64,000 nt of DNA from Candidatus Saccharimonadia bacterium (lineage in GTDB: Bacteria; Patescibacteriota; Saccharimonadia; UBA4664), in assembly GCA_041743505.1 (NCBI GenBank), contig JBGTMQ010000017.1, positions 85,368-149,367 on the forward strand, written 5' to 3'. The translations under genes were made by a program, and so were the position numbers. Of the stretch, positions 14,598 to 62,104 are shown piece by piece (within the stretch, counting starts at the first letter, position 1; every line of letters starts with the position of its first letter). The notes beneath the pieces were generated by a model, which worked only from the letters and a program-made list of their open reading frames with translations, searched no databases and was not told where the DNA came from.

Positions 14598-14666
14598 TTG
14601 TATTATTGTACCTCAACCATTACTCATCACACGCCTTCAACCAAACCCTTTTAGGCCCAGGCCTTC

Positions 14667-37528: not shown

Positions 37529-40051
37529 TTGTTGATTGTGTTTTTGGTGAATCACATCTGGGGGAGGGCAGCTAGACAATCGCTGTGGGCGATCCTGTTT
37601 GCTGTGCTCTTGTGCCTGGTGCCTCAAGCCGTTTCCGCCGCCGGCGAATCCTACACCTGGCAAGGCACAGGTGACGCCAGCATTGTAGCCTCCGGCGGTA
37701 ACTTCGGGGTCAATAAAACCACCTTCGCCAAGACCGCCGACGCCGGCGGAAGCGCCACCTTTACCGCCAACGCCACCTATGAATGTAGCGGCAAAACCGT
37801 CACCGGCCCGCTTACCATCACAGTGGCTGCCGACAAGTACAAAAAAGCCTACCCCACCGAAGGAAGCGTTACGGGCGCCGGCGCTGCCTGTGCCTTTACG
37901 GCCGCGGTAATCAGCAAAGCCAACGTCGATCAGGTCACCGGCCAGCCCGTCCCCGCCGCCGGCCAGGACCCACGGGAAAGCTGCGACCAAGGCGGGTTTA
38001 CCTGGCTGTTCTGCCCCGTCATCGACAATATATCCTCAGCCGTTGCCGGCCTGGCCCGGGACGTGCTGGGGCCCATGCTTGAGGTCAAACCAATCAGCCC
38101 AGAAACCACACCGGATCTCTACAAAACCTGGACTCATATCCGTGACTTTGCTGTAGTCCTGTTTATTCTCGTGTTTTTTGCCATTATCGGCGCCACACTC
38201 ATACAACAAGATATCGGCGGCTTCGACCAATATACCGTCAAAAAGATCTTGCCCCGACTGGTTATTGCCTCAATCATGGTACAGTTTAGCTTCCTCATCT
38301 CAGGCATTATTGTCGATATCGGAAATGTCCTTGGAGGTGGCATCGGCCACTTGCTGTCTGCGGTCACTGATCCATCCAAAGGCCCGGCCAGCTTCACCAA
38401 CCTGGTCGGCAACCTGGTCACCGGAAGTGTAGCCTCGGTTGCAGGACTGGGCGCCGTCGCCGTCCTGGCGTCGTGGACTGTCGCAATCCCTGTGCTGCTC
38501 GGCCTGCTCTTGAGCCTGCTGACCGTCTTCCTGACGCTTGGCGCCCGCTTCCTCATCCTGGCCGTCCTGATCGCCATCTCACCGATAGCCATGCTCGCCT
38601 GGGTCCTCCCGAACACTCGCGATTTTGCCGCCGCCTGGTTCGAGTTTTTCGTCCGGCTCGTCCTAATGTACCCGCTGGTTATCCTCATCATCTCCGTAGC
38701 CGGCATCGTCAACCAAATACTGCCGTTTAGTGGCGACACCGCCAATAGCGGCAGCGCAGCAGTCGCAGTAGCCCTCATCAAGCCGCTTGTCGTCATTGCC
38801 GCCTTCCTCATTATTCCCATCAGCTTCAAGCTCGCCGGGCTAGCCCTGAGCCGTATCCATGGCCTGCTCACCGGCGTTGCCCAACAGGGTAAAGGCCTCA
38901 TCAAGGGCAGCGATATGTACCAACGGGGCCTCGAGGACCGTCAGGGACGCAAGAATACCTACATGGGCCGCGTCCTCAACTCCAAAACCATCAGCTCACT
39001 CCAAAATAAGGGGCGCGGCGGCCAAGCAGTCGGCGGTTTCATGAGCGGCGCCGCCGCCGTAGCCTTAATGCGCGCCCCCGCCAGCAAAGCCGCTTTGCAA
39101 CGCAGTAACTCTGCACTAGTGGCCAAGCGGGAAAAGAATCTGACCGAAATCAAAGAGGCCCAAAACCCCAACAACCTCAAAGCCGCTTTAGCCGCCATGA
39201 ATGGCGACGAAAGCGCCCGGGCCAAGCTGCAAAGAACCGCTCCAGACTTACTCCGCCTGGCTTCAACCGCTTCCGGCCGCGAAGCCATGTTCAACCGCCT
39301 TCTCGCCACTGAGTTCGCCGACAGCAAAGACCTTGACCAGTTCCGCACAACCGCACCAAAACGCGGCCTCAAATACTTTGGTGTCACCGGTGATACATCC
39401 GCGGAATGGCGCTCCCTGCGTGACGCCGGCCAGGCCAAACGTAACCAGTTACCGACCATCGTACAGCGGCTCGAACAAGCCAAAACCTACGACGTGGTTG
39501 ACCGCGCCGGCAACACGCTCAAGACCATTTCCCGTGACATGGGCGCCGTTGATATGAATGGCGTCTCCAAGTCATTCGCCAAATACACCGCTGCCAAGCT
39601 GGCCGATGTCTCGCCGGATGTCTTTGAAATGATGACCGACACCGCCAACCCAATCGCCGCCATGGATGCTGCCGAGGCCATGGCCATTGGATTGGAGCCA
39701 CGGCAACTCGCCAAAGTCTTCGACCCCAATGACCGCAACCCGGCTCCCCCTGAGCGCAAGATCGCTATCGCTAAAGCTATGCGGGCCCAATATGAGAACG
39801 TCTGGAACACCAACGATGAATACCGCTCCACCTTCGACGCCATGCATCATCAATTGGTCCGCGACGACAAGCTTGGCGTCCAGCTAACCCGTACCGCCGG
39901 CGCCACCGAAACCCAGCTCCGTGCCCTCTCAAACGAAGGCCAATCCTACGTTGCCTCGCGCTGGCTCAAAGACAAGAACTTCAAGTACTCAGATCTAAGC
40001 GGCATGACCGTCGCCGACATCAACGCCGCCGGCCATGCCCTCCGGAGATAA
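37529..40051 (+). CDS. VirB6/TrbL-like polytopic T4SS membrane protein with long hydrophilic C-terminal extension (paralog A)
   Basis: TTG start (the exact start is uncertain). Signal peptide, then a Cys-containing exported segment (CDQGGFTWLFCPVIDN), at least 6 TM helices (DQYTVKKILPRLVIASIMVQFSFLISGIIVDIGN...), then a ~400-aa Ala/Lys-rich soluble tail. Confidence 0.55.
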   Translation: MLIVFLVNHIWGRAARQSLWAILFAVLLCLVPQAVSAAGESYTWQGTGDASIVASGGNFGVNKTTFAKTADAGGSATFTANATYECSGKTVTGPLTITVAADKYKKAYPTEGSVTGAGAACAFTAAVISKANVDQVTGQPVPAAGQDPRESCDQGGFTWLFCPVIDNISSAVAGLARDVLGPMLEVKPISPETTPDLYKTWTHIRDFAVVLFILVFFAIIGATLIQQDIGGFDQYTVKKILPRLVIASIMVQFSFLISGIIVDIGNVLGGGIGHLLSAVTDPSKGPASFTNLVGNLVTGSVASVAGLGAVAVLASWTVAIPVLLGLLLSLLTVFLTLGARFLILAVLIAISPIAMLAWVLPNTRDFAAAWFEFFVRLVLMYPLVILIISVAGIVNQILPFSGDTANSGSAAVAVALIKPLVVIAAFLIIPISFKLAGLALSRIHGLLTGVAQQGKGLIKGSDMYQRGLEDRQGRKNTYMGRVLNSKTISSLQNKGRGGQAVGGFMSGAAAVALMRAPASKAALQRSNSALVAKREKNLTEIKEAQNPNNLKAALAAMNGDESARAKLQRTAPDLLRLASTASGREAMFNRLLATEFADSKDLDQFRTTAPKRGLKYFGVTGDTSAEWRSLRDAGQAKRNQLPTIVQRLEQAKTYDVVDRAGNTLKTISRDMGAVDMNGVSKSFAKYTAAKLADVSPDVFEMMTDTANPIAAMDAAEAMAIGLEPRQLAKVFDPNDRNPAPPERKIAIAKAMRAQYENVWNTNDEYRSTFDAMHHQLVRDDKLGVQLTRTAGATETQLRALSNEGQSYVASRWLKDKNFKYSDLSGMTVADINAAGHALRR

Positions 40052-43845: not shown

Positions 43846-44532
43846 ATGAGCAAGCAAGGTTGGGAAGCGTACAAAGCAGACGCCCTCAAGCGGCTTGAAG
43901 GTCGTGACGTACAAGCGCCGAGTCAACCAACCCAGACGCTGGGTCAGACACCTCAAGCGCCAACGACTGCACAGGCACCAACTGCTGAGTTTGATCCTGC
44001 GGCAGCATTCCGCGCACACCAAGCCACCGAGCAAACACGTCAACGTGAGCTCGCACAACAGCACGCAGCAGAACGTGAGCTTACTCAAACAAGAGCCCGA
44101 GAGCTTTCAGCTTTCATCGAACGCCTTCGGATGCTCCTGTCCAAAAAAGGCTCACCTGGGCTAACAAGCTTCGAGATTCAGTTAACATATTCCATGTATG
44201 AACCAGCGGTACGGCGAAGGAGTGGTCGTATAATTTCTCCCGAAAAAGAAACACCCCCGACATATCGGACAGAATGGGGCTGGGAGATTGCAAGTATTCA
44301 AGGCCCCGGTGACTATATCTCGTCGCCTCGTTATAATCTCATGCTCTGTAGAGATGGAGCACTATGGGTTACTCTTGGAGCTAGAACATACCTCGATATA
44401 AGTGACGAAACCGGCAATTTCACCCTGACTTGCCGACAAACATCACTTTCACTAGCTAGGCTAGAAGCCGACATCATTCCGGGAGTGGCGAGGTTAGTTG
44501 ATAACCTCAATCTCCAGTGGGATGGCAACTAG
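43846..44532 (+). CDS. hypothetical protein, cassette paralog 1 (candidate T4SS-associated substrate)
   Basis: 228 aa. N-terminus MSKQGWEAYKADALKRLEGR, then a Q/P/T-rich low-complexity segment, a coiled coil, and a C-terminal globular domain (TEWGW.IA...NLMLC.DG.LWVTLG...DIIPGV.RL...L.WDGN). No signal peptide. Confidence 0.5.
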   Translation: MSKQGWEAYKADALKRLEGRDVQAPSQPTQTLGQTPQAPTTAQAPTAEFDPAAAFRAHQATEQTRQRELAQQHAAERELTQTRARELSAFIERLRMLLSKKGSPGLTSFEIQLTYSMYEPAVRRRSGRIISPEKETPPTYRTEWGWEIASIQGPGDYISSPRYNLMLCRDGALWVTLGARTYLDISDETGNFTLTCRQTSLSLARLEADIIPGVARLVDNLNLQWDGN

Positions 44533-44540
44533 CTGTCCAC

Positions 44541-44575
44541 CCCGCCCCTTGCGAACTGCAGGGGGTCTTATTATT
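44541..44575 (+). terminator. conserved terminator element, copy 1
   Basis: CCACCCCGCCCCTTGCGAACTGCAGGGGGTCTTATTATTT: stem CCCCTTGC/GCAGGGGG plus a T-run. Confidence 0.6.
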
Positions 44576-44630
44576 TACCAATAAATGCTCCGCAAAGCCG
44601 CTGTTTGTGGGCGAATTCCTTCTTACACGC

Positions 44631-44659
44631 TTGCAAGAATTGCAGAAATATGTTATAAT
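44631..44659 (+). promoter_or_regulatory. sigma70 promoter with extended -10
   Basis: TTGCAA-17-TGtTATAAT. The -10 region ATGTTATAATTAACTAT is nearly identical to the one at 32421..32437. Confidence 0.55.
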
Positions 44660-44722
44660 TAACTATCTATCACTCTCCTGAGTTGTTAGTGCACCAACTT
44701 CCGCTACAGACAGGACAACCCG

Positions 44723-45388
44723 ATGAGCAAGCAAGGCTGGGAATCGTACGTACAAGATGCCCTCAAGCGACTCAAAGCACGTCAGGCGCCTACAACAAGT
44801 CAACCAACCCAACTGGCTCAGCCTAGCCAGCCAGCTTCAACATCTAGGGACCCTGCAACCCAACTTCGAGCACATCAAGCTGAAATGCAAACTCGTCAAC
44901 GTGAGGAAACGAAACGCCAAGCGACCGAGCTCCTAGAAGCTGAGCAAGAAAACCAAGAGCTGGCAGCCTTCCTAGAACGGCTTCAACGCTTTTTGTTGAA
45001 GCACAACTCACCAGGACTATCAAGCTTCAGTATTCAAACTGGCGGCCACGAAAATAAGAAACTACCTTCAGAGCCCACGGGTCCGCTAGCCGGACGGAGG
45101 AAAGAAGATACAACTTACTCGGTGCCAATAAGCCGAACTGAATGGGGTTGGCAAATAGCCACCCAGAGAGATAGCAGTGGCGAGTCACCAAATACCAACC
45201 TCATGTTGTGTCAGGACGGAACACTTTGGGTTACGCTCGGGTCTACCGTCTACTTTGATGGTTCAGATGGAACCGGCCGGCACACTCTAGGCCACAAAAC
45301 AATTGACACGGTCGGTCTATACATCGATATCATCCCTGGCGTCACCCGACTCCTAAGCGAGCTCGGTCTAGAGTGGGATGGCAACTAA
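44723..45388 (+). CDS. hypothetical protein, cassette paralog 2
   Basis: 221 aa, same architecture as 43846..44532 (MSKQGWESYVQDALKRLKAR...TEWGWQIA...NLMLCQDGTLWVTLG...DIIPGVTRL...LEWDGN). Confidence 0.5.
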   Translation: MSKQGWESYVQDALKRLKARQAPTTSQPTQLAQPSQPASTSRDPATQLRAHQAEMQTRQREETKRQATELLEAEQENQELAAFLERLQRFLLKHNSPGLSSFSIQTGGHENKKLPSEPTGPLAGRRKEDTTYSVPISRTEWGWQIATQRDSSGESPNTNLMLCQDGTLWVTLGSTVYFDGSDGTGRHTLGHKTIDTVGLYIDIIPGVTRLLSELGLEWDGN

Positions 45389-45398
45389 CCCATCAGCC

Positions 45399-45432
45399 CC
45401 GCCCCCTGCGAAACTGCAGGGGGTCTTTTTAA
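45399..45432 (+). terminator. conserved terminator element, copy 2
   Basis: CAGCCCCGCCCCCTGCGAAACTGCAGGGGGTCTTTTT. Confidence 0.6.
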
Positions 45433-45452
45433 TAAAAACATACGCGTAAAGA

Positions 45453-45481
45453 TTGACAAAATATTAAATACAATATATAAT
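45453..45481 (+). promoter_or_regulatory. consensus sigma70 promoter
   Basis: TTGACA-17-TATAAT upstream of the 45578 gene. Confidence 0.6.
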
Positions 45482-45577
45482 ATAGGATTCAACAACTGCA
45501 TTAGCCGTACCGCCGCCTGCAGCAAGACGAAACTTTTCATCGATACCGATAACACCTCCGATCTGAAAGGCTAAATC

Positions 45578-46240
45578 ATGTGGCCCTTCCGTAACCGACG
45601 AACCAGAATGCAGCCCACTACAGACAAAGGCGAACCAACGAGCTTGATGGGCTGGAGAAGCAACCGTGCCAAGCGAATCGCAGAGGTACAAGCACGAACC
45701 GCCGAAAGACGCAAGCGAACCGCAGAAGTACAAGCACGAACCCTTGCAAGACTACGTCGAACCTTGGGTCCTCAGAGTGTATCAACTGACTCTGCTACAT
45801 CCAATCTTGCATCCACTGGCTCCTCAAATACGACCGACACAGTCAGCGTATTCGATCGGGCGAAGCAAGCCGCTCAAGCGGACGACGCTGCTAGCACTCA
45901 GATTGCTGCTGCTCGCTATCAGGAAGACGCGGATGCCGTTCAAGCAGCAGCCGCTGATTGGTTTATCCGCATGGGCGTGAGGCCAGTACCGGTAACAACC
46001 GGCAGAGGCGGGGGAGTAGATGTAGAATTTCTCACCGCTTACTGGGAACTAGAAGGACGGAGCTTCCGGGGTACTATGTTACTAACCGGCAGTGGCTCTT
46101 ATGGAACCCTCAGGGTTGAGATCAAAGTAGAGCCAGTATGGTGCAGCTATCCAAAAGGTCGCTGTCAATACTGCCCTCACGAAAGCTGGAGAGATGCAAA
46201 CAACTTGACGGAGTTAGGTCTAGCTCTCCGTAGTTCTTAA
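45578..46240 (+). CDS. hypothetical protein, cassette gene 3 (basic N-terminus with tandem repeat)
   Basis: 220 aa. N-terminal Arg-rich segment with a ~39-nt DNA tandem repeat (AEVQARTAERRKR / AEVQARTLARLRR). Unrelated to paralogs 1 and 2 but flanked by the same promoter and terminator architecture. Confidence 0.45.
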   Translation: MWPFRNRRTRMQPTTDKGEPTSLMGWRSNRAKRIAEVQARTAERRKRTAEVQARTLARLRRTLGPQSVSTDSATSNLASTGSSNTTDTVSVFDRAKQAAQADDAASTQIAAARYQEDADAVQAAAADWFIRMGVRPVPVTTGRGGGVDVEFLTAYWELEGRSFRGTMLLTGSGSYGTLRVEIKVEPVWCSYPKGRCQYCPHESWRDANNLTELGLALRSS

Positions 46241-46506: not shown

Positions 46507-47352
46507 ATGGGACAGTATAAAGTTCCTCAAGACGTCGAGTCCGAAGATAAAATCCTTGGGCCGTTAACGTTCAAACAGTTTATTTACGCCTTGGTCGGGT
46601 TCGGTTGGGCCATCGTGTGCTTTGGTGTTTTTCAAAAAATACCTGTTGTAATGATTTTATTGGGATTGCCGCCTACAACGCTATTCTTGCTGCTGGCTTT
46701 TTACCGGCGCGATGGCCAGAACTTCGAGCAATTACTCATCGCCATGGTCGGCTTCTTCGGTAACGACCGCAAACGGCTCTGGCGCAAGGATGACGTGGCG
46801 GAGACGTTCCACATTGAGCCGCACAAGATCATCAAGGAGCAGAGCCAGCGCAACCCGGTCGAAGTCCGCAGTGAGCTAGAGCGCCTGGCTACCATGATCG
46901 ACGCCCGTGGCTGGAACCAAACGCCTGTCCCGGCCGCCGAGGTCATCTCGCCCATCGGCTACAATGCCGGCGACCGGCTGGTAGCACCGGACAGCACGCC
47001 GGCCAACAGCAACCTGCCCCAGCCTCAAGCCAGCGAAGACATGCTAGACCTACAACACAGCCCACTGGCCCAAAACCTGGCCAGCCTCATCGAGACGGCA
47101 GCTGCTGACGTCCGCGAAGAGGCCATCGGCCAAATGAAAGCCCGCCAAACCGCCGCCCAGCGTCAAGCCGCTACTGCCGCTGCCACTCCCGCCCAGAGCA
47201 TAAGCGGCGTGACAGCAACCAACCCGAACGATATAATGAGATTAGCAACGGAGAGGGATGACTTGACCGTCTCGCAGCTGGCCGCGACCGCCACTCGGAA
47301 CGCGCCCCTGCAAGAAGGTCAGTCAGTGAGTGTACGCGCAAATGGTCAATAA
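46507..47352 (+). CDS. VirB3/PrgI-like T4SS membrane protein
   Basis: An AGGAG RBS. Two closely spaced TM helices near the N-terminus (LTFKQFIYALVGFGWAIVCFGVF...VMILLGLPPTTLFLLLAFY), immediately upstream of the VirB4-like ATPase. Long hydrophilic C-terminal tail. Confidence 0.5.
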   Translation: MGQYKVPQDVESEDKILGPLTFKQFIYALVGFGWAIVCFGVFQKIPVVMILLGLPPTTLFLLLAFYRRDGQNFEQLLIAMVGFFGNDRKRLWRKDDVAETFHIEPHKIIKEQSQRNPVEVRSELERLATMIDARGWNQTPVPAAEVISPIGYNAGDRLVAPDSTPANSNLPQPQASEDMLDLQHSPLAQNLASLIETAAADVREEAIGQMKARQTAAQRQAATAAATPAQSISGVTATNPNDIMRLATERDDLTVSQLAATATRNAPLQEGQSVSVRANGQ

Positions 47353-48088
47353 CCAGTCAACCAGTAACCCAGCCAACACCGGCAAGAGCACTCAGGGCAG
47401 CTTGCTGATTTCTGAAATCAAAGACGGCGTGGTCGTAATGCGCGACGGCTCGTTGCGCGGCGTCATCCTCGGCTCGGCCATTAACTTCGACCTCATGAGC
47501 TCGCAGGAGCAGGAGGCCGTCGAATTTGCTTACCAGGGCTTTATTAACTCATTGCACTTTCCCGTCCAAATCAGTATCAAGAGCCAGAAAATAGACCTGG
47601 ACGGATATCTCGAAAAGTTAACCGCCCTGCGCAGTGCCCAGCCCAATGAGCTGCTCGGCCTGCTCATGGACGACTACATGGCTAACATCAAGGCCCTGGT
47701 CGACGAGGTCAACATTATGGACAAGCAGTTCTACGTCACCGTGCCGTTCTTCCCGCCGGTAAATCCCACCAAAACGGTTAGCCTCATTGCCGGCATCAAA
47801 GCCGCCTTACAACCCGTCCCGATTATTACGGTTGAAGAAGATGAGTTCAAAAAGTACAAGCAAGAGCTGTCGCAGCGCATGGCCTTGGTCTCAAGCGGCA
47901 TGTCCCAAATGGGCATCCGGGCGCTAGCCTTGGGTACCCAGGAGCTGGTTGACCTGTATTACGGCTGGTACAACCCGGATGTGGCCGTCAACGAGAAACT
48001 CATCGACACTTCACAGCTCACCTCACCGGTAGTTACCAAGGGTGACGGCGCCGCGCCCCGCGGACCATTACCGGGAGCACCAGTATGA
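47342..48088 (+). CDS. VirB4-like ATPase, N-terminal domain encoded as a separate ORF
   Basis: ISEIKDGVVVMRDGSLRGVILGSAINFDLMSSQEQEAVEFAYQGFINSLHFPVQISIKSQKIDLDGYLEKL matches the conserved VirB4/TrbE/CagE N-terminal region. The start overlaps the upstream stop. Confidence 0.55.
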   Translation: MVNNQSTSNPANTGKSTQGSLLISEIKDGVVVMRDGSLRGVILGSAINFDLMSSQEQEAVEFAYQGFINSLHFPVQISIKSQKIDLDGYLEKLTALRSAQPNELLGLLMDDYMANIKALVDEVNIMDKQFYVTVPFFPPVNPTKTVSLIAGIKAALQPVPIITVEEDEFKKYKQELSQRMALVSSGMSQMGIRALALGTQELVDLYYGWYNPDVAVNEKLIDTSQLTSPVVTKGDGAAPRGPLPGAPV

Positions 48089-48224: not shown

Positions 48225-50114
48225 ATGGCTATATTTGGCAAAAAACAAGAACCAATGACACCAGGCGGCCTGGCCGCAGCTCAACAAGCTCAAGAGCAGC
48301 GCGAAGCCGAGTTAATCTACCGCCAAGGCATTGTCACCATGCGCGACCTCATCGCGCCACCATCACTCGAGATCGAGTCAGGCTACATTCGGCTAGGCAA
48401 GCGCTTCGCCAAGACCATTTACGTCTACGGTTTTCCCCGCCAGGTCTTTACCGGCTGGCTATCGCCCATTATCAACCTGGACGAAATTATCGACATTTCG
48501 CTGTTTATTTATCCCGTAGAGAGCAAGGTCGTGCTGGAAAACCTGCGCAAAAAAGTCGGTCAGCTGGAGGCCAGTTACTCGATCAACCAGGAGAAGGGCA
48601 AAGTCCGCGACCCTGGACTCGAAGCCGCCATCCAAGACGCCGAGGAACTGCGTGACAAACTCCAGGTAGGGGAGGAGCGCTTCTTCCGCTTCGGCTTGTA
48701 CCTCACCATGTATGCCGATTCACTCGACGAGCTCACCCAAGTCACCCGCAAAATCGAGGGCATTTTCGGCCAGTCACTGGTCTACACCAAGCCGGCCACC
48801 ATGCAGATGGAGCAGGGCTTCAACTCCACCACACCGCTCGGCTCAGACCAGCTCGGCATCTCCCGCAACATGAACACCGGCGCCCTGTCTACCAGTTTCC
48901 CGTTCACCTCGGCCGAATTGAGCCGCAACGAAGGAGTGTTGTACGGCCTCAACCGGCACAACAACGGTTTGGTTTTGTTTGACCGCTTCTCGCTCGAAAA
49001 CGCCAACATGGTCGTGTTCGCCAAGTCCGGCGCCGGTAAGTCCTTCGCTATCAAGCTCGAAGCCCTACGTAGCCTCATGATGGGCACCGAAATCATCATC
49101 ATCGACCCGGAGAACGAGTACAAAACCCTCGCAGAGGCCGTCGGCGGCAGCTACCTGCGCCTGTCCCTGGCTGCCACCACCCGCATCAATCCCTTTGACC
49201 TGCCGCGCGTCTTTGACCAGGAAGAGGCCGACAACGCCTTGCAGGCCAACATTATCACTCTGCACGGCCTGCTGCGCCTCATGATGGGTGGTGCCTCCGT
49301 CAACACCACCACCGGCGCCACGCTCACCACACCACTGACTCCGGCCGAAGACGCCGACCTGGACGTGGCTATCATCAACACCTACGCCCGCGCCGGCATC
49401 ACCAAAGACCCGTTGACCCACAACGTCATGCCGCCAACCATGAATGACCTCTATAACACCCTGGCCTCCATGACCGGCAACGGCCCCGGACTGGCCCAGC
49501 GCCTGCGCAAATACACCACCGGCACATTCAGTGGTATCTTCTCAGAACAGTCCAACGTCAAACTCGACAACCCGTTCCTGGTCTTCAACATCCGCGACCT
49601 CGAAGACGAACTGCGGCCCGTCGGCATGTACATCGTCCTAAATTACATCTGGAACAAGGTCAAATCCGACAAGCGTAGGCGCATCCTCATCGTGGACGAG
49701 GCTTGGCAGCTCATGAAATACGACGACTCGGCTGCCTTCATGTTCTCTCTGGCCAAACGTGCCCGCAAGTACTTCCTCGGCCTTACCACCATCTCCCAGG
49801 ACGTGGAAGACTTCTTGAGTAACAAAATGGGCCGGGCAGTCGTGGCCAACTCCTCGCTACAGCTCTTGCTCAAGCAAGCCCCCAGCGCCATCGACATCGT
49901 GGCCGACACCTTCAAGCTCACCAGCGAGGAGAAAAACCGCCTCAGCCAGTTCCCGGTCGGTGAAGGATTGTTCTTTGCCGGTCTCAACCACGTCATCATT
50001 CGCATTCTCGCCTCACAAACCGAAGCCGAGCTCATCTCAACCAACCCGCAAGCTCTCCAAGCCGCCCGCCAGGAGCAGGCTGAGGCTGATGCCGGTCGCC
50101 AAGGAGCAGCCTGA
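48225..50114 (+). CDS. VirB4/TrbE-like T4SS ATPase, central and C-terminal ATPase part
   Basis: A GGGGAGGA RBS; Walker A FAKSGAGKSF; Walker B RRILIVDEAWQLM; conserved VirB4 middle region (IAPPSLEIESGYIRLGKRFAKTIYVYGFP). Confidence 0.8.
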   Translation: MAIFGKKQEPMTPGGLAAAQQAQEQREAELIYRQGIVTMRDLIAPPSLEIESGYIRLGKRFAKTIYVYGFPRQVFTGWLSPIINLDEIIDISLFIYPVESKVVLENLRKKVGQLEASYSINQEKGKVRDPGLEAAIQDAEELRDKLQVGEERFFRFGLYLTMYADSLDELTQVTRKIEGIFGQSLVYTKPATMQMEQGFNSTTPLGSDQLGISRNMNTGALSTSFPFTSAELSRNEGVLYGLNRHNNGLVLFDRFSLENANMVVFAKSGAGKSFAIKLEALRSLMMGTEIIIIDPENEYKTLAEAVGGSYLRLSLAATTRINPFDLPRVFDQEEADNALQANIITLHGLLRLMMGGASVNTTTGATLTTPLTPAEDADLDVAIINTYARAGITKDPLTHNVMPPTMNDLYNTLASMTGNGPGLAQRLRKYTTGTFSGIFSEQSNVKLDNPFLVFNIRDLEDELRPVGMYIVLNYIWNKVKSDKRRRILIVDEAWQLMKYDDSAAFMFSLAKRARKYFLGLTTISQDVEDFLSNKMGRAVVANSSLQLLLKQAPSAIDIVADTFKLTSEEKNRLSQFPVGEGLFFAGLNHVIIRILASQTEAELISTNPQALQAARQEQAEADAGRQGAA

Positions 50115-50136: not shown

Positions 50137-53088
50137 GTGGCAGAACCAGCACGGCCACTCGACTCTGATCAACCCGAATACCTGGATTCACGGGCCGCAC
50201 GTAAAGCCCGCATGCGTGGTGGCTCTATCGAAGGTGGCGGTGAGGGCGGCGAACCAGTCAACCGCGACCTCCGGGCAGTTCCCGAATCCGAGACCAAGCC
50301 CGAAGCCCCGGCCAACGAGATGGGGGACAACGCAAAAAATCAGGGCCGCCCTAACCTCCGGGTAATCCCGGGAGGCAAAAGCGATAATGCCGGTTCGCGG
50401 ACCGGCGGAGCCCCAGACCCCGGCGCCTCAGGCGGCCAAAATAACCCCGCTGGTGGGCCCGGCTCCAAGAGCAGCAAAGGCGGCGTCGGCGGCAAACTGG
50501 GGCAAATGTTCGGCCGCAACAAGAAAAAAATGATAGCCGGCGGTGGCATCGGCGCCGTTCTCATAAGTGCAATCCTCGGCGTCATCGCTCTTCTGCCCCT
50601 CAAAATGGAATCGTTAATCCAAAACGTCATCAAGGATGAGTTCAAGCGTGCTAACTATGCGGTTGGTGAGCGGGCCGAAGTGCTCGCGGTCTATTACTTG
50701 GCCCGTAAAGCCAATGTTGACATTGGCAGAAATATTGTAACCGGCGGTCCCGTCGATCTCCTGTTCGGCAATATGGCCAAGAACGACTTCGAAAAAACAC
50801 TTCTCAAAAACCATGGTATTAAAGTTGAAGCAGGTTCCGCCAGGGGTCGCATTAAGGTTACGTATACAGGACCGTACGAGACTAAGAGCATCGACGATCC
50901 GCTTAGTGAGTATATTAACCAAGACCTCAGTAGCAACGATTCCCGTGCATTCTTAAAAGCCGCCACGAAAGAATATACCAGAAGTGCCACCAAATACCCG
51001 CTTGTGCTTATCCGACGCCACATCCGGTCCTGGATGCGCAACGCCTACGGCATTCGTAAATGGAAGCTTTATGACGGCAAAAAGGGCAAAGAGGCCAGTA
51101 AATTTATTGATGGTGAAATCCGGACTGCAGCCATGAGTTCCTATGGAGATCGTGTAGGTAGAGGTTTGAGTTGTATCTTGGGCGATAAAGCCAGTTGTCC
51201 CGACGCGGCCAAAGCCAACCCCAATCCAAACGAGGGCCGGCCCGCCAATGCCGATGGCGAAGCTGCCAGACTGGCGCTAAACGAAGCCATCTCTGAGGTA
51301 GCTGGGAGCGAAGAAACCTTGACTACCGATGCCGTGACAAAAAAAGTTAGCGAAAGCTTACTCAAGCAAACCGCCACCAAAGCCATCCCCATCATTGGCT
51401 GGATCGACCTCGCTGCCCGCATCGATGATGTCGTCTGGCATAATATTATCGGCCAAATCATCGCCGACTACCGCGCTGCGCAATACGCCGCCACCTTCGC
51501 CATCTTCGCCACCGCCGCCGACAACCAAAAGGAGGGCATAGACGGCACTACCAAGAACCGTGCCTCCGGCGACGAAGTCAACGCCGTCATGCTCAAGGTA
51601 GCTGATGTTCATAAGTCAGCCGACTTCCAGCGAATTTTTTTTAACCGGGCCGGCGGTCAAAAGCTGCCTCCAGAAAAACAAGTCAACAGCGCCAACGCTG
51701 CCAGCTTTACCGCCGGCTATCAAAAGGAAATGTTCATCTTCCATTACGGTATCTTCGTTCCATACCTAGCCACTATTGGCCAAGTTGTCAACTTCCTTGG
51801 CGACCTTATCGGCGGGGTTCTCGGGGTAATTGGCGACGCCCTCACCGCGGTGCTGCCGTTTTTGAACGACGTCAAAAAATTCATAGGTGAAGTCATGATG
51901 AAAGTATTTCAATGGATCTTCCCGCCGGTAGTAACCGGCGCCGAACGCGACGGAGAACTCTTTACCGCCATCGACACCGGCGCCGATGTCACCGCCAACG
52001 ATTTCTGCAAAGGTGTCTTGGGCTGTGTCAAAGTATCACCCACCGCCGCCGCCGAAGCTGACCGCCGAATAGCTATAAATGAAGCCACCGAGTTTAGACA
52101 GCAGGACCTTATTTCCCGCATTACCGATATTCAGAACCCCAACGCCTTCGGTGCCCGTTTCCTCGCCCTCATGCCCACCAGCGTCGGCAGTGTTACTAGT
52201 CAAACTCAAGACTATTTGGCGTCCATTTTTTCCAACCCCTTACGATTCTTTGCGCCATTCCTGGGTGTACTGTCTCACACCTTAGCGCATGGTGTCAGCG
52301 CTGACGCGCCCATTCCCAAAGAGCATGGTGTCCAACAGTACAATGTAACCCAAGAAATGATCGATGCCCCCTTGAACGAGCTCGTCGCCAGCGGCAAGGC
52401 CAAAACCCGCGAAGACTGTCTCAACCCGTCCATAAATCCCGAAGCCGCCAACCCCGAAGGACCCAATAGCTGTCTCTTGGAGCTAGCCGCCGTTCAAGCT
52501 ATGAATGCCGTTTACACCAAAGACAATGACGGTGGTCTCGAGCCCGAAGCCGGCGCACCCGCCGGCGGTGGCGGTATCATCAATGGACCTGGCGGCAATA
52601 TAGCCACAGCCGGCTGCAACGACGCTAGAACCTGCGCCCAAAAAATCCTAGCTCTTGTACCAAGCAAAATTACCTTCCAGCAACCCAGCGACCGGTCAGA
52701 CATGGAAAAAGTTGCCAACGGCCAACCAGTCGTTTACTGCCAGGTCAATGGCCCCATCAACACCACGCTGCTCCAAGCCATCGTCGTGGCCGGCCAGACC
52801 TACAGCTTTAGCATCAACGCCCTAGCCTCCGGTCACGGCAAATGTGACGGCGCCTTCCACGACAAGGGCCGAGCCGTTGACGTCGGCAACGTGAACGGCG
52901 TCCAAGCCACCCAATCAAACCTTGGCACCGCCACCTACAAACAATTTGCTCAATTCATTGCCAATCTCTTACCAAACGGCGGTCTTGGCCAAATGCAATG
53001 CCTCGGTTCACTCAGCCCTGCGCCCCACCGCTACTTTGAAGATGGTTGCAACCACATTCACTTCGATGTCGGGGCTGGTGCCCCTTGA
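50137..53088 (+). CDS. large bitopic membrane protein with a C-terminal M15-like (Hedgehog/DD-peptidase fold) zinc-peptidase motif
   Basis: GTG start after an AAGGAGGG RBS. Gly-rich disordered cytoplasmic N-terminus, one TM helix (IGAVLISAILGVIALLPL), an ~830-aa extracytoplasmic region, and a C-terminal SGHGKCDGAFHDKGRAVDV...GCNHIHFDV stretch that resembles H-x7-D...H-x-H zinc ligands. Confidence 0.45.
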   Translation: MAEPARPLDSDQPEYLDSRAARKARMRGGSIEGGGEGGEPVNRDLRAVPESETKPEAPANEMGDNAKNQGRPNLRVIPGGKSDNAGSRTGGAPDPGASGGQNNPAGGPGSKSSKGGVGGKLGQMFGRNKKKMIAGGGIGAVLISAILGVIALLPLKMESLIQNVIKDEFKRANYAVGERAEVLAVYYLARKANVDIGRNIVTGGPVDLLFGNMAKNDFEKTLLKNHGIKVEAGSARGRIKVTYTGPYETKSIDDPLSEYINQDLSSNDSRAFLKAATKEYTRSATKYPLVLIRRHIRSWMRNAYGIRKWKLYDGKKGKEASKFIDGEIRTAAMSSYGDRVGRGLSCILGDKASCPDAAKANPNPNEGRPANADGEAARLALNEAISEVAGSEETLTTDAVTKKVSESLLKQTATKAIPIIGWIDLAARIDDVVWHNIIGQIIADYRAAQYAATFAIFATAADNQKEGIDGTTKNRASGDEVNAVMLKVADVHKSADFQRIFFNRAGGQKLPPEKQVNSANAASFTAGYQKEMFIFHYGIFVPYLATIGQVVNFLGDLIGGVLGVIGDALTAVLPFLNDVKKFIGEVMMKVFQWIFPPVVTGAERDGELFTAIDTGADVTANDFCKGVLGCVKVSPTAAAEADRRIAINEATEFRQQDLISRITDIQNPNAFGARFLALMPTSVGSVTSQTQDYLASIFSNPLRFFAPFLGVLSHTLAHGVSADAPIPKEHGVQQYNVTQEMIDAPLNELVASGKAKTREDCLNPSINPEAANPEGPNSCLLELAAVQAMNAVYTKDNDGGLEPEAGAPAGGGGIINGPGGNIATAGCNDARTCAQKILALVPSKITFQQPSDRSDMEKVANGQPVVYCQVNGPINTTLLQAIVVAGQTYSFSINALASGHGKCDGAFHDKGRAVDVGNVNGVQATQSNLGTATYKQFAQFIANLLPNGGLGQMQCLGSLSPAPHRYFEDGCNHIHFDVGAGAP

Positions 53089-54419
53089 AAAAGGTCATCC
53101 TTCGATTCATTGTCATTAGCATCATGGCAACACTCATACCATCGGGTGTTTTTGCCGTTTCGCCGGAGGACCGCCATGCCATCTATAACAATACGGTCTG
53201 GTATGACCCCTATGCCGTCGAGTGCGGCCCAATCGGTACGGGCATCACCCCTGGCGGCGGTGGACCAGCCGCTCCAGGATCGGATAACATGGAAGAAATC
53301 TGGAACAACCTCATCACCAGACTGACACCGTTCCAAGTAGCCGGCATCATGGGTAACATGCAGTCCGAATCCGGGTTTGACCCCTACATTGTCCAGGGTG
53401 GTGGCCATTCACAAAACCCGTCAGTTGCGGGTGAAGGCGTGGGTTACGGCCTGGTGCAATGGACACCCGGCTCCAAGCTCACCACACTGCTAGCCGGTAA
53501 ACCACCCACCATCCCCAACCAAATCGATGCCTTATGGGTCCAGCTAACCGGCACCGGCGCCCATTCCGAAAAAAAAGCCGGCGACAATTTACGAGCCACC
53601 ACCAGCATTGATGACGCCACAGTAGTTTTCGAGCTTCAGTACGAACGGCACGCCGGCGGGGCCCAGCCGGCCCGCAAAACCCAGGCTCATGCCATCCACA
53701 AACTCGCTCAAGAAAAAGGCTGGAACATGGGCACCGCCGTAGTAGTGCCGGTTGGCAGCGGCGGACCCGGCGGGGGACCAGGCGGCGGCCCGGCTAGTAC
53801 AACACCCCAATCAGCCGCCAACTGTACAGCACCAGCTGGTGCCGGTGGTGTCGGTTGCACCAACGGCGCCAACATATTGCCAGTGCCCCCAGGGGGGAAG
53901 GGAACACCTGCCTGCTACTTCAACCAATCCGACCTCAGTGGCGGCAACTACGATTGGCCCGAATGTGGCTGCCTGCCGACCTCAGCTCTCATCATCCGGG
54001 CCTCGGTCGAAAACAATCCAACCCTTGATCCGGTCAGTGTGCTTGAGGGCGTCCGCTCCAAAGGCGGGGTCCATGAGGGGGGATGCTTGGGTGTACATGG
54101 AGGCGCCATCAACTACATCCAGTCACTAGGCTACCAAACCCAAACCATTGTTCCGTGGCATGGAACAATTACCGATGCCTCAATCGCCACAATAACTAAT
54201 ATGCTTGGACAAGGTTTCATGTTCATGACCCATACTTCTAAATCAATTGACAGCGCCGGCTCTAAAGACACCCCGGGCCACTTCCTAGTCATCCATGCCG
54301 TCGATGCCCAAGGCAATTTCTACGTCGCAAACCCCGGAGCCCGGGCCGATAACAATAAACCTGTTCCAGCCTCCAGAGTAAAAGTCTGGCTGGACATGGC
54401 GGTAGCATTCAAAAAATGA
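53046..54419 (+). CDS. secreted cell-wall hydrolase (VirB1 functional analogue): lysozyme-like domain plus C-terminal CHAP-like peptidase
   Basis: Signal peptide (alternative TTG start at 53085). The AGIMGNMQSESGFDP...GYGLVQWTPG motif is typical of the phage-tail-lysozyme-type muramidase domain found in Gram-positive conjugation hydrolases. The C-terminal Cys...His region (GHFLVIHAVDAQGNFYVANPG) is CHAP-like. Confidence 0.55.
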   Translation: MQPHSLRCRGWCPLKKVILRFIVISIMATLIPSGVFAVSPEDRHAIYNNTVWYDPYAVECGPIGTGITPGGGGPAAPGSDNMEEIWNNLITRLTPFQVAGIMGNMQSESGFDPYIVQGGGHSQNPSVAGEGVGYGLVQWTPGSKLTTLLAGKPPTIPNQIDALWVQLTGTGAHSEKKAGDNLRATTSIDDATVVFELQYERHAGGAQPARKTQAHAIHKLAQEKGWNMGTAVVVPVGSGGPGGGPGGGPASTTPQSAANCTAPAGAGGVGCTNGANILPVPPGGKGTPACYFNQSDLSGGNYDWPECGCLPTSALIIRASVENNPTLDPVSVLEGVRSKGGVHEGGCLGVHGGAINYIQSLGYQTQTIVPWHGTITDASIATITNMLGQGFMFMTHTSKSIDSAGSKDTPGHFLVIHAVDAQGNFYVANPGARADNNKPVPASRVKVWLDMAVAFKK

Positions 54420-54934
54420 TGGACTACCTACGCAATCACCCAATCCTGTCTCTGTTAGTCGGCGGTGGTATTGTGCTAATCGCCATCATTGCAGTAACCG
54501 TCCAAGCGCTCCAATCCAACGATCCCAAAGCAGATCAAGACCCCCAACAAGCTACCAGCTTCTACAGTCCCTTAGCCCAAACCTCAGATAGTCTGCTCGT
54601 AAACTACGGTGGTAGCGCCGACCCCAACCAGGACGCCGTCCATGGACGGTTCAAAGTCCTCGGTCTTGACGCCATGCCGCTACCCCAGTCCGTCAAAGAC
54701 TCCCTGTCATCATCACTAACCACGTCTCTGGAAAAAGTCATAACACCCACGTACTCTTTGGCCTATATTCACATAGACCGCAGTAGTATTAACTGCCACA
54801 CCCAATTTGATTGCCGTTTCTCGCTCTACATAGATAGCCCCGAAAGCTACCACTCTTACCACTCTTACCTCAAACCGGATGGCAGCCAAGCCTACTCGCT
54901 CACCGCTCAACCATTCCCGGGAGCCGGCCAATGA
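54416..54934 (+). CDS. hypothetical bitopic membrane protein
   Basis: 172 aa, one N-terminal TM helix. Translationally coupled (the start overlaps the upstream stop). Confidence 0.4.
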   Translation: MMDYLRNHPILSLLVGGGIVLIAIIAVTVQALQSNDPKADQDPQQATSFYSPLAQTSDSLLVNYGGSADPNQDAVHGRFKVLGLDAMPLPQSVKDSLSSSLTTSLEKVITPTYSLAYIHIDRSSINCHTQFDCRFSLYIDSPESYHSYHSYLKPDGSQAYSLTAQPFPGAGQ

Positions 54935-56277
54935 ATACAGGTATATTAATCCGGCGCGCCATTCTCGGCCTGATACTAATCGGCGCCTTAACCGGCTTTT
55001 GGTACTTCACGATTAGTCATAGTTTTGTGCAATTGACCTTGCCATCAGGAACCGACAAAGCTGAGGTCACCAATAGCCAAACCGGCCGTACCATCACCAC
55101 CCGCGCCAGCTCAGGCTGGATCAACCTGCCCACGGGTGACTACGTCATCACCTACTACCAGGCAGGACAAGCAACCAATATGCAATTCACTCACATCGGG
55201 CCGTTGTCTGTGCAATCCGTCAAACCATCCCAGGCCCAGCCCGGCCAAAAACCGTTAACCGTACTCAACCACGCCGCTGACCTCGTAACGCCGCTTGGTA
55301 ATGGCTACTTGTATCTGGACAAAGCAACCCGCGGACTCAGCTATGCGGATGCGGCCGGAACCACCGACATCAGTGCCCGCTTCCACCTCACAACCAATCC
55401 CGGGGCCAGTCTGGCAGTCAGTGACCAGTCGATCCTCAACACCGTTATTGGCCTCGAACCGGTCACCGGCGGGGGAGTCGTCGTTACCACCACCCGGGGA
55501 GTTTTTACCGCTAGTAGCCCAACCAACATAACCCAGCTCCCGGTTTTTCCTACCGCTAACTTGAACCACACCTCCAGCGCCTACGACCGCCAAACTGGTA
55601 GCCTGTTCGTGCTCTCCAGCTACTCCAAAACCCTCTACCGCTACAATCTCAATAAACCAGCTGCCGCTCCGGCCGTCTTCTATCAAGGCAAACTCGAACT
55701 CAACCGCCTAGCAGCCGGGGGTGGCAAAGTGGTCGCCTACTTCGACTCAGTTCCATCCACCGAGCCAGCTGTGCTCGCCCAGTACGCCTTTAAACGCCAA
55801 CTCAACCCGCTCGTCATCGATGCAGACGGCCAACTCATCAAAGAACTAACCGGCTTCCAACCCGCCACCTATCTCTCGGTATCAGCCAGCGGTAACTACC
55901 TGGCTATCAAGAAGAAACTGGCCGGGTCAATCACCATCTACGATCTGGCTTCAAACAAAACTACTACGATACCCAGCCATGACACTGGCGGCGCCGGCTG
56001 GCGCGGCGACACGTTCTATCTGGCTCGAGACAACGCCATTTGGTCGTATAATACTATTGACGACGATGGCCTCACAAAAGTCGCTGGTACTAATGCACCC
56101 GTAACTCGACTGGTATTAACGCCTAGCCAAACCATTTTGACCACCAATCAAAATACAACCGCCAGCCTAGAAAAAACCGGGGCCACGAAAACACCTGTCA
56201 CTGTTCCATCCGCCCCCGGAACACCGGACCCTGCGCGCTACATTTACTACGCGCCACCACCGGAAACCGGCCGCTAA
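54931..56277 (+). CDS. hypothetical bitopic membrane protein with a large beta-rich ectodomain
   Basis: 448 aa, N-terminal TM helix, Thr/Ser/Gly-rich ectodomain. The start overlaps the upstream stop. Confidence 0.4.
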   Translation: MNTGILIRRAILGLILIGALTGFWYFTISHSFVQLTLPSGTDKAEVTNSQTGRTITTRASSGWINLPTGDYVITYYQAGQATNMQFTHIGPLSVQSVKPSQAQPGQKPLTVLNHAADLVTPLGNGYLYLDKATRGLSYADAAGTTDISARFHLTTNPGASLAVSDQSILNTVIGLEPVTGGGVVVTTTRGVFTASSPTNITQLPVFPTANLNHTSSAYDRQTGSLFVLSSYSKTLYRYNLNKPAAAPAVFYQGKLELNRLAAGGGKVVAYFDSVPSTEPAVLAQYAFKRQLNPLVIDADGQLIKELTGFQPATYLSVSASGNYLAIKKKLAGSITIYDLASNKTTTIPSHDTGGAGWRGDTFYLARDNAIWSYNTIDDDGLTKVAGTNAPVTRLVLTPSQTILTTNQNTTASLEKTGATKTPVTVPSAPGTPDPARYIYYAPPPETGR

Positions 56278-56295
56278 TATTATCAGGAGAGTACC

Positions 56296-56745
56296 ATGCC
56301 GAATAATCGTAAGATAATTATGATCGTAGCGGTGGCCATACTCATCGCCCTCGCCGCCTTCATCACCATCACCAGCTCACCGTCAGGATCCAAAGTCGGC
56401 TCAACACCGTCACCCACCCCGGGACCAGGCGTTCAGTATTCCGGCACCGATGCCCTTATTCGACAAGGCGTCTCGTCAAACAATCTCGAAAACCTCAAAT
56501 TCGCCATTTTCAAATTTAACCGCGATGCCAAAACGGTTACCATCGCCAACGCTGATCATGCCCACAGCATGGCCCCGGATGGCGCCGCCATAGACTCAGT
56601 AGCCTTTGACATAACCATCGACCAAACCACCTACAAAGGTGACCTCCTTAGTGTTGGCCTTGAATCCGCCAAACTAACCCTTAAAGACCCCAAAACCAAA
56701 ACCCTGGTATACGACTCAGGAGTGGTTAAGGTCGATCGCAAATAA
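56296..56745 (+). CDS. hypothetical bitopic membrane protein
   Basis: 149 aa, N-terminal TM helix. Last gene of the plus-strand T4SS-like block. Confidence 0.4.
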   Translation: MPNNRKIIMIVAVAILIALAAFITITSSPSGSKVGSTPSPTPGPGVQYSGTDALIRQGVSSNNLENLKFAIFKFNRDAKTVTIANADHAHSMAPDGAAIDSVAFDITIDQTTYKGDLLSVGLESAKLTLKDPKTKTLVYDSGVVKVDRK

Positions 56746-60718: not shown

Positions 60719-62104
60719 TCAAGCTACTTGAGCAAGCTGCTCTTTTATAGCACTCACATCCATCCGCAAGTTCTCATCATCCTCAATTTGCTTCTCAATC
60801 TTACTCACCGAGTGCATAGCCGTAGTATGGTCTCGCCCGCCCACAGCTGCCGCGATCTTCGGAAAACTCAACCCCATCTCGTGGCGCATCAAATACATTA
60901 CGATCTGTCGCGGCACTACAATCTCCTTGTCGCGCTTACTGCCAAGAATGTCCGCCATCTGTAAGTCAAAATAAGCCGCTGTCCGTTCAATCACCACTTT
61001 CGGCGTCATCGGCTTAAACTTAGGCTTCGCTGCCGCCTGTCCAGCCAAAAGCTGCGTGGCCAAAGGCACGTTGGGCTCGATACCCCGTACCTCACAGGCT
61101 CCTAATAATTGCGTCAAAGAGCCTTCTAGCTCCCGAATGTTCTGAGGCATTTGGCGAGCCAAATAATCAATTACATCCAGGGGCAAGATTTTTCCTTGAG
61201 AAGCTGCTTTGGCCTGCAGGATTGCCGAGCGCGTCTCCAGGTCCGGCGGTTGTACGTCGGCCGTCATACCCATGGCAAACCGTGATCGCAACCGGTCCTC
61301 AAGCTGCACCAACAGTTGTGGTGGCTTGTCACTAGAAATAATTATCTGCTTATTGGTTTGGTGCAGTGCGTTAAAGGTATGAAAGAATTCATCCTGAGTT
61401 GCCTCCTTGCCGGCCAGAAACTGCATATCATCAATAATTAACACATCTACATTGCGGTACTTATCAACAAAGGCTGAATTCTTCTTCTTTTGAATAGCGC
61501 CAATAAATTCATTGGTAAAGCTTTCGCTCGATACATACTCAATGCGTTTAGACGGGTCATGCCGCAAAATTTCATTACCCACGGCTTGCATCAAGTGCGT
61601 CTTGCCCAGGCCCACGCCGCCATACAAATACAACGGGTTGTACTTAGTGCCCGGACTCTTGGCCACCGCCTGGCATGCCGCATAAGCCAGCTCATTAGAT
61701 GACCCGACCACAAATGAAGCAAAGGTGTAGCGAGGGTTTAGATTGGTGTTTGGACTAGCTGCCTGAATGGGTAAGCTCGCTTGAGCAGTTTTGGGTTTGG
61801 CTGCCGGCACCTCGGTCCGCTTAGTTGCATGTCCGGCTGGAGCCGTGGCTGGTATCGAGCTAACCTTATATTCAACCGTCTGGACGCCGGTATTCATCTT
61901 GGCCAGCGTAGTTTTTATATCGTTGTGGAACTTGTCTTCCAGCCATTTTTTAGCCATAGCATGAGGCACCGCAATAGTAATATGCCCATTCTCGTTTCCG
62001 ATAATAGTGGTGTTTTTAAACCAGGTAGCAAAGTTAGCCCGGGAAATAGTGACCTCAAGTTCACCCAGGACAGCCTGCCACAACACCTTATGATCCATAC
62101 ACAC
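60719..62104 (-). CDS. dnaA: chromosomal replication initiator protein DnaA
   Basis: AAA+ Walker A GGVGLGKTHL, Walker B LIIDDMQF, C-terminal DNA-binding domain; 461 aa. Confidence 0.9.
   Translation of the reverse strand: MCMDHKVLWQAVLGELEVTISRANFATWFKNTTIIGNENGHITIAVPHAMAKKWLEDKFHNDIKTTLAKMNTGVQTVEYKVSSIPATAPAGHATKRTEVPAAKPKTAQASLPIQAASPNTNLNPRYTFASFVVGSSNELAYAACQAVAKSPGTKYNPLYLYGGVGLGKTHLMQAVGNEILRHDPSKRIEYVSSESFTNEFIGAIQKKKNSAFVDKYRNVDVLIIDDMQFLAGKEATQDEFFHTFNALHQTNKQIIISSDKPPQLLVQLEDRLRSRFAMGMTADVQPPDLETRSAILQAKAASQGKILPLDVIDYLARQMPQNIRELEGSLTQLLGACEVRGIEPNVPLATQLLAGQAAAKPKFKPMTPKVVIERTAAYFDLQMADILGSKRDKEIVVPRQIVMYLMRHEMGLSFPKIAAAVGGRDHTTAMHSVSKIEKQIEDDENLRMDVSAIKEQLAQVA

Follow-up and report, generated by a model that had tools for sequence, protein, structure and literature searches.

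Two adjacent genes of a Candidatus Saccharimonadia bacterium, designated here ORF1 and ORF2, are likely to make up the cell wall-cutting module of a type IV secretion system (T4SS) of the Patescibacteria type, probably that of Saccharimonadia, located beside the replication origin. Both lie in a stretch of 64,000 nucleotides of contig JBGTMQ010000017.1 (positions 85,368 to 149,367, forward strand; hereafter the window, with all coordinates counted from its first letter), directly behind a gene for a VirB4-type ATPase. ORF1 (50137..53088, plus strand) starts at a GTG codon and encodes 983 amino acids, predicted to form a protein that is anchored in the membrane and ends in a zinc-peptidase domain. 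ORF2 (53085..54419, plus strand) encodes 444 amino acids, predicted to form a secreted two-domain hydrolase that combines a lysozyme with a cysteine peptidase. Patescibacteria spend their lives attached to other bacteria, a way of life for which the T4SS is essential and in which it has to cross one or two murein layers. An original prediction made from the letters of the window had named the two genes as cell wall hydrolase candidates, and both open reading frames, together with the motif strings quoted for them, are real.

Results

The C-terminal domain of ORF1 (residues 824 to 983; 52606..53085, plus strand) was assigned to the Hedgehog/DD-peptidase (LAS, M15-like) domains from profile comparison, AlphaFold2 modeling, and Foldseek searches. 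A domain profile built from six sequences and covering the last ∼160 residues retrieved a family of 1710 clusters at E ≤ 1e-3 and 587 at E ≤ 1e-10 (clusters at 50% identity). Across 151 sequences of this family, H908, G911, H973, and H975 are conserved at 100%, D915 and D969 at 99%, the cysteine pair C955 and C971 at ∼94%, and A913 at 92%. The predicted active site is made of two motifs. HDKGRAVD (52858..52881, plus strand) holds the predicted zinc ligands H908 and D915, as judged from conservation and the alignment with Sonic hedgehog, and DGCNHIH (53041..53061, plus strand) holds D969 and H973, which conservation marks as candidate catalytic residues, and the putative zinc ligand H975, the individual roles being predictions. 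The original prediction had described an H-x7-D pattern followed by H-x-H; the latter is present, in the form D969-x3-H973-x-H975, but the first spacing is H908-x6-D915.

Comparison of the domain profile with PDB sequences gave an E value of 0.16 with six sequences and of 0.0057 with 31, and all 24 matches were Hedgehog N-domains or the phage T5 L-Ala-D-Glu peptidase. HDKGRAVD aligns with SLHYEGRAVD of Sonic hedgehog; NHIH is placed opposite AHIH of the same protein in the HMMER alignment, but this stretch scores below zero. The AlphaFold2 model of the domain (pLDDT 78.6, pTM 0.82) was compared with PDB using Foldseek, where the top six matches were Hedgehog N-domains (probability 0.92, TM ∼0.36, E 0.015, a weak match), followed by the M15 peptidases (M15C) ChiX, RB49 peptidase, and LysB4. 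Among viral models, most of the named matches were M15A peptidases, entries called “Peptidase,” or MepK (murein endopeptidase K); tape-measure, tail-terminator, and other unrelated entries were also retrieved.

Eleven homologues of ORF1 were found, with lengths ranging from 760 to 1496 amino acids and a common part that corresponds to residues ∼130 to 800. Five of the eleven finish with the same C-terminal domain as ORF1. The position of the LAS domain is occupied by a VanY domain (M15B, E 5e-15) in P0005, and by two endonuclease/exonuclease/phosphatase (EEP; PF03372) domains and M23 in P0006, P0008 (contig L004, 8001-12491), and P0009. The PF03372 domains may put a non-murein activity, possibly that of a nuclease or phosphodiesterase, on this T4SS-linked scaffold. 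The N-terminal profile of ORF1 was matched by 87 of the 95 proteins longer than 700 amino acids that carry its C-terminal domain, as counted among the top matches.

Since the invariant ligand residues, the weak but exclusive Hedgehog/M15 matches, and the VanY or M23 domains that homologues have instead all agree, we conclude, on evidence that is weak to moderate, that ORF1 ends in a zinc peptidase domain of the LAS type (M15-like), one that falls outside the current Pfam M15 models. The likeness to M15/Hedgehog-type zinc sites that had been read from the motif alone is thus upheld, although the name M15 would apply to the fold and the active site only.

At its full length, ORF1 had no match in Pfam, NCBIfam, or PDB sequences in single-sequence searches (Pfam at E ≤ 1), and a profile of ten full-length homologues, which covers the ectodomain of ∼650 amino acids, had no meaningful match in PDB. 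The GTG start at 50137 is supported by sequence comparison, because the N-terminal MAEPAR.. is common to the homologues P0007, P0010, and P0011. A transmembrane anchor is predicted at residues ∼134 to 156 (50536..50604, plus strand; Kyte-Doolittle window maximum of 2.48). It is preceded by a Gly/Pro-rich tail of ∼130 amino acids and a KKK cluster, and the positive charges before the segment point to an N-in orientation. A second hydrophobic stretch, at residues 532 to 579 (51730..51873, plus strand), has a hydropathy of 1.3 to 1.9 over 48 residues and could be a membrane hairpin. The earlier description of ORF1 as bitopic is therefore borne out for the one strong transmembrane segment, but the second stretch makes the topology uncertain. 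Residues 1 to 133 (50137-50535) contain, besides the MAEPAR start, a conserved RPNLRV(I/V)xGG motif amid low-complexity Gly/Pro-rich sequence, and this motif of the predicted cytoplasmic tail may serve to contact the ATPase. An identity of ORF1 as a VirB6 homologue was considered and rejected, VirB6/TrbL being the 840-amino-acid gene at 37529-40051.

The longest possible reading frame of ORF2 runs from a TTG codon at 53046 to 54419. The most likely start is, however, the TTG at 53085, which yields the typical signal peptide MKKVILRFIVISIMATLIPSGVFA (53085..53156, plus strand), followed by VS. This signal peptide was read from the sequence and matched to the N termini of homologues, such as that of P0013, which starts with MKRLILIF. 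The same TTG overlaps the stop codon of ORF1 as TTGA, which suggests translational coupling of the two genes. The start called at 53289 in an identical public contig was rejected; it removes the signal peptide, and the protein-level conservation upstream of it argues against it. Directly after the signal peptide (53157-53240, residues ∼25 to 52) lies a motif of ∼25 residues with the pattern acidic, x, hydrophobic, N, x2, two hydrophobic, Y/F … acidic, C, G. It was also observed at the N termini of P0013 to P0022, P0031, P0047, P0127, and P0155, secreted hydrolases whose catalytic domains differ widely, and could be a docking or targeting module.

The first domain of ORF2 (residues 67 to 204; 53283..53696, plus strand) is a lysozyme domain of the phi29 gp13 type. 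It matches PF18013 (Phage_lysozyme2) with an E value of 2.9e-26 and 92.8 bits, against a Pfam cutoff of 28.2, over positions 1 to 136 of the 140 in the model. The PDB entry 3csr (phi29 gp13) was matched with an E value of 7.7e-6. In gp13, Glu45 is catalytic and Gln54 stabilizes the substrate (PMC10394673). The string GNMQSES is identical in the two proteins and aligned with the Glu45 motif, which makes Glu95 of ORF2 (53367-53369) the predicted catalytic residue, and Gln54 is also matched. In the Pfam search of ORF2 at E ≤ 1 there was no match to SLT (PF01464), glucosaminidase (PF01832), NlpC/P60, or the CwlT-type lysozyme, which we take to be PF13702. The lysozyme had been proposed to be of the kind found in CwlT, PrgK, and TcpG; given its PF18013 type and the lack of a Pfam match to these other lysozyme families, it is better regarded as a functional analogue of these proteins than as a member of their families.

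A Gly/Pro linker separates the lysozyme from the second domain (residues 261 to 444; 53865..54416, plus strand), a C39-like cysteine peptidase domain of papain fold with the predicted active-site residues Q281, C296 (53970-53972), H399 (54279-54281), and N416. These four residues are invariant in the alignment of the domain (A3). PF13529 (Peptidase_C39_2, cutoff of 24) was matched with 24.3 bits by the domain alone and with 21.5 bits in the full protein, and eight of nine homologous domains match it, the best with an E value of 4.7e-7. The AlphaFold2 model (pLDDT 90.1) has C296 where a helix begins and H399 just ahead of a strand. The best Foldseek match in PDB was the C39 peptidase domain of ComA (5xe9; E 5.4e-4, probability 1.00), and further matches included interpain, staphopain, and cathepsins, which have the papain fold. 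A profile of the domain had no match among PDB sequences, and a search for related loci with its alignment gave one weak actinobacterial match only.

The Cys/His region had been thought to be CHAP-like. This identity was rejected, as PF05257 was matched neither by ORF2 (E ≤ 1) nor by the nine homologous domains, no CHAP domain was found among the 50 Foldseek matches listed, and C39 is closest. Among homologues the domain always stands behind a muramidase, either PF18013 or PF06737. In P0022, which is related to ORF2, a weak CHAP match was observed in the same slot, and other PF18013 proteins homologous to ORF2 pair the lysozyme with CHAP, NlpC/P60, M23, VanY, or amidase domains. Catalogues of phage lysins and of mycobacteriophage endolysins list PF13529 among their peptidase modules. 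The fusion to a muramidase, the presence of CHAP in the same slot, and the status of PF13529 as a lysin module make a murein peptidase the best inference for this domain. The signal peptide, the PF18013 and gp13 matches, and the C39-like fold agree with the prediction of a secreted muramidase joined to a Cys/His peptidase.

Both genes are part of a T4SS block, as had been noted. The VirB4-type ATPase gene (48225..50114, plus strand) matches the NCBIfam model conju_CD1110 with 352.7 bits (cutoff of 325) and the Pfam model P-loop_TraG with an E value of 5.6e-26. Upstream of it are the gene for a TrsD/TraC-like protein (47330-48088), which corresponds to the N-terminal region of VirB4 as a separate protein, and that for PrgI, starting at 46507. 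In the identical contig L001, an open reading frame of 46 amino acids is called between the TrsD/TraC-like and VirB4 genes. Proteins of 900 and 231 amino acids are also encoded upstream of PrgI. Between the 900-amino-acid gene and PrgI (43846-46240) lie three tandem paralogous genes for proteins of ∼220 amino acids, two of which begin with MSKQGWE.Y..DALKRL and end in WDGN. These paralogues had no Pfam match and no evident counterpart in the gene list of Southlakia epibionticum. Five T4SS pilin genes (PF18895; 35463-37485, minus strand) diverge from the VirB6 gene, an arrangement that has been reported for Saccharimonadia.

ORF2 is followed by genes for three small to medium membrane-anchored proteins of 172, 448, and 149 amino acids (54416-56745), for which no significant Pfam match was obtained. 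The first two start on ATGA overlaps, and in view of the ATGA and TTGA overlaps, ORF1, ORF2, and the next genes are probably cotranslated as one operon behind virB4. recF and dnaN lie farther downstream, and a 461-amino-acid open reading frame at 60719-62104 (minus strand) is presumably dnaA, by its position only. The order PrgI, TraC-like, VirB4, ORF1-like, hydrolase … recF, dnaN recurs in contigs L003, L004, and L005, so that the place directly downstream of VirB4 is conserved in four contigs; dnaA follows dnaN in two of these three. Across the three, both hydrolase slots hold different catalytic domains. Elsewhere in the window, a Mur ligase gene (8119-9417, minus strand) and two tandem FemAB-family genes (13551-15692, minus strand) were found, which indicates that the producer makes murein. 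The organism probably builds a murein with an interpeptide bridge, a possible substrate of the peptidases. The two FemAB genes give a factual footing to the FemAB-bridged envelope mentioned in the original prediction, for which such enzymes may be needed.

The layout of the locus is that of the Patescibacteria T4SS of Quinonero-Coronel et al. 2025 (PMC12102498). In the cultured relative S. epibionticum, the two hydrolase positions are those of SEML1_0007 and SEML1_0006. The supplements of Wang et al. 2023 (PMC10633639), whose annotation is based on structure, enter SEML1_0007 (3342 nt) with no Pfam match, assign its residues 951 to 1105 to the ECOD group “Hedgehog/DD-peptidase,” and name M15B and M23 proteins among its structural neighbors. 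For SEML1_0006, entries in the same supplements give PF18013, PF01832, and “cysteine proteinases,” with the annotation “lysozyme-like x2 + cysteine proteinases.” Their transposon sequencing (Tn-seq) entries have both genes as growth defective and then essential, as summarized in PMC12102498, and SEML1_0667, another PF18013 protein encoded elsewhere in that genome, as nonessential. VirB1 profiles do not retrieve the pair (PMC12102498). The three genes after ORF2 sit where S. epibionticum has the PEGA and prealbumin-like proteins SEML1_0005 and SEML1_0004.

Discussion

From the domain identities, the residue conservation, and the synteny observed here, we infer a substrate, zinc binding, a topology, and a link to T4SS assembly. 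ORF1 would be held in the membrane by its N-terminal anchor and would display a large ectodomain ending in the LAS zinc peptidase, which would cut the stem peptides or cross-links of peptidoglycan. ORF2 would be exported by Sec, its gp13-type muramidase cutting glycan strands and its C39-like cysteine peptidase cutting peptide stems or bridges. Translationally coupled behind virB4, the two proteins would open a local gap in the murein for the T4SS and its pilus. This role would be analogous to that of VirB1, CwlT, PrgK, and TcpG elsewhere, without homology to these proteins.

Several points weigh against this reading. The Pfam M15 models, of which the original prediction had suggested searching Peptidase_M15_3/4, were matched neither by ORF1 (E ≤ 1) nor by six domain sequences, those of ORF1 and five homologues (E ≤ 10), and the ORF1 domain had no match to the M15/Hedgehog models PF01427, PF02557, PF08291, PF13539, and PF01085. 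With a TM of 0.36 and an E value of 0.015, the similarity in fold is weak, and residues 135 to 150 form a disordered loop in the model. Alignment of the domain profile with the VanY domain of P0005 by hhalign was not significant and covered only the HxxGxAxD stretch. For ORF2, the C39_2 score lies right at the Pfam threshold, and the substrates of classical C39 peptidases are leader peptides rather than murein. Finally, the orthology of ORF1 and ORF2 to SEML1_0007 and SEML1_0006 would follow from synteny and architecture, not from alignment. The PF18013 match lies far above its cutoff, and the Glu and Gln residues of gp13 in ORF2 and the predicted zinc-ligand positions in ORF1 (99 to 100% conserved) are in place.

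It is possible, although we favor the first reading, that the pair is directed outward and cuts the peptidoglycan of the host at the contact site, which would let the pilus or channel of the epibiont reach the host membrane, with swappable domains that track the chemistry of the host wall. Lysozymes of the phage tail type, to which that of ORF2 belongs, are used by phages to penetrate walls from outside, and the exchange of catalytic domains on a constant scaffold is lysin-like: LAS, VanY, or two EEP domains and M23 in the ORF1 family, and C39-like, CHAP, NlpC/P60, M23, VanY, or amidase domains in the ORF2 family. In addition, S. epibionticum requires the genes at these positions for its epibiotic growth, and for CwlT it has been discussed that a donor-encoded hydrolase may act on recipient cells. 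Domain swapping is, however, equally common among housekeeping autolysins, and the anchoring of ORF1 in the membrane of the producer limits its reach. Nothing in the data points to secretion through the T4SS, and the producer's own murein, to which the Mur ligase and FemAB genes testify, also must be crossed.

We regard it as rather unlikely, but worth stating, that the ORF1 family is a Patescibacteria-specific T4SS subunit, an anchored scaffold with interchangeable heads (LAS, VanY, M23, and EEP nuclease/phosphodiesterase), which breaches the host wall together with secreted “second-slot” hydrolases that share the motif after the signal peptide. If this were true, the domain repertoire would be a host-range determinant in epibiotic Saccharibacteria.

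That the two proteins are general autolysins for growth and division, which lie beside T4SS genes near oriC by chance and have no specific role in secretion, appears improbable. Small Patescibacteria genomes have few hydrolases, Tn-seq essentiality is also expected for division hydrolases, and genes near oriC may gain from high gene dosage, a point raised in PMC12102498. The place right after virB4 is nevertheless kept in four independent contigs, with overlapping start and stop codons, the ORF1 scaffold is kept in nearly all of the long proteins with this C-terminal domain (87 of 95), and the other PF18013 protein of S. epibionticum, SEML1_0667, is nonessential.

There is little to recommend the C39-like domain of ORF2 as a processing protease for the maturation of exported proteins, be they T4SS pilins or others. 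Double-glycine leaders are cleaved by C39 domains, ComA provides the best structural match with its leader-peptide peptidase domain, and five pilin genes are present in the same locus. However, the constant fusion of the domain behind a muramidase, the occurrence of CHAP in its slot in close homologues, the recognition of PF13529 as a phage lysin module, and the absence of any ABC-transporter context all speak against such a function. It is just as improbable that the C-terminal domain of ORF1 is a noncatalytic Hedgehog-like module that binds murein or a partner: its closest solved structures are Hedgehog signaling domains, not enzymes, the metal site of Hedgehog signaling proteins is not known to act on a physiological substrate, and PrgK carries an inactive LytM-like domain, but across 151 diverse sequences there is essentially no variation at the three ligand positions or in the D-x3-H pair, and VanY or M23 fills the slot in homologues.

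For the cell wall-cutting module proposed here, the window confirms that the locus has a metallopeptidase gene and a lysozyme/cysteine-peptidase gene as fixed members, and it shows that their catalytic heads are exchangeable. The analysis also delimits a large LAS-type domain family (∼1700 clusters) that is matched by no Pfam model here, and it provides specific residues and constructs for biochemical work. The current picture is unchanged, since the S. epibionticum proteins had already been assigned to these folds; the same pair is already annotated, and essential, in this cultured relative, and the finding is correct but largely ordinary.

Comparison with known systems

The ORF1 domain has the same H-x6-D and H-x-H motifs as the LAS or MEROPS M15 peptidases (VanX, VanY, the T5 and RB49 L-Ala-D-Glu peptidases, ChiX, and MepK) and the Hedgehog N-domain. 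Like Sonic hedgehog with its E-x3-H-x-H motif, it has an acidic residue four places ahead of the first His of H-x-H. Its family differs from all of these in its own conserved Cys pair and its own N-terminal helical part. The second domain of ORF2 shares the papain fold and the Gln/Cys/His/Asn positions with C39 peptidases, namely, the ComA peptidase domain, PF13529, and the N5 domain of mycobacteriophage endolysins. In contrast to C39 peptidases, it is secreted and fused to a muramidase, without attachment to an ABC transporter.

The pair showed no homology to hydrolases of the VirB1/SLT, TrsG, or CD419 type, in that no SLT, NlpC/P60, or CHAP Pfam match was obtained. The functional counterparts are CwlT of ICEBs1, Orf14 of Tn916, PrgK of pCF10, and TcpG of pCW3, which, like ORF2, are encoded in a VirB4-containing locus of monoderm type and join a muramidase and a cysteine peptidase in one protein; cwlT is needed for conjugation. 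The families differ, those proteins having a CwlT-type lysozyme with NlpC/P60, SLT with CHAP, or a glucosaminidase with NlpC/P60, whereas ORF2 has PF18013 with PF13529. In the window, moreover, the activities are split over two genes, one of which encodes a membrane protein of ∼1000 amino acids that has no counterpart there. The tail protein gp13 of phage phi29 (PDB 3csq/3csr) has a lysozyme homologous to that of ORF2 and also pairs it with a LAS metallopeptidase (M23). This protein is, however, a virion component, whereas the partner on the same chain in ORF2 is a cysteine peptidase and the metallopeptidase is on the neighboring protein ORF1.

The closest system is that of S. epibionticum ML1, in which the pair likewise sits between virB4 and recF-dnaN-dnaA and the T4SS locus also includes PrgI, a TrsD-like protein, VirB6, and an array of pilins. 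The window differs in its three extra paralogues of ∼220 amino acids upstream of PrgI and in its small downstream genes, and SEML1_0006 differs from ORF2 in its length of 643 amino acids and an extra lysozyme domain of the glucosaminidase type (PF01832). SEML1_0006 nevertheless combines, like ORF2, a PF18013 lysozyme with a “cysteine proteinases” domain, and SEML1_0007 is, like ORF1, a protein of ∼1000 to 1100 amino acids without a Pfam match that ends in a Hedgehog/DD-peptidase domain of ∼155 amino acids.

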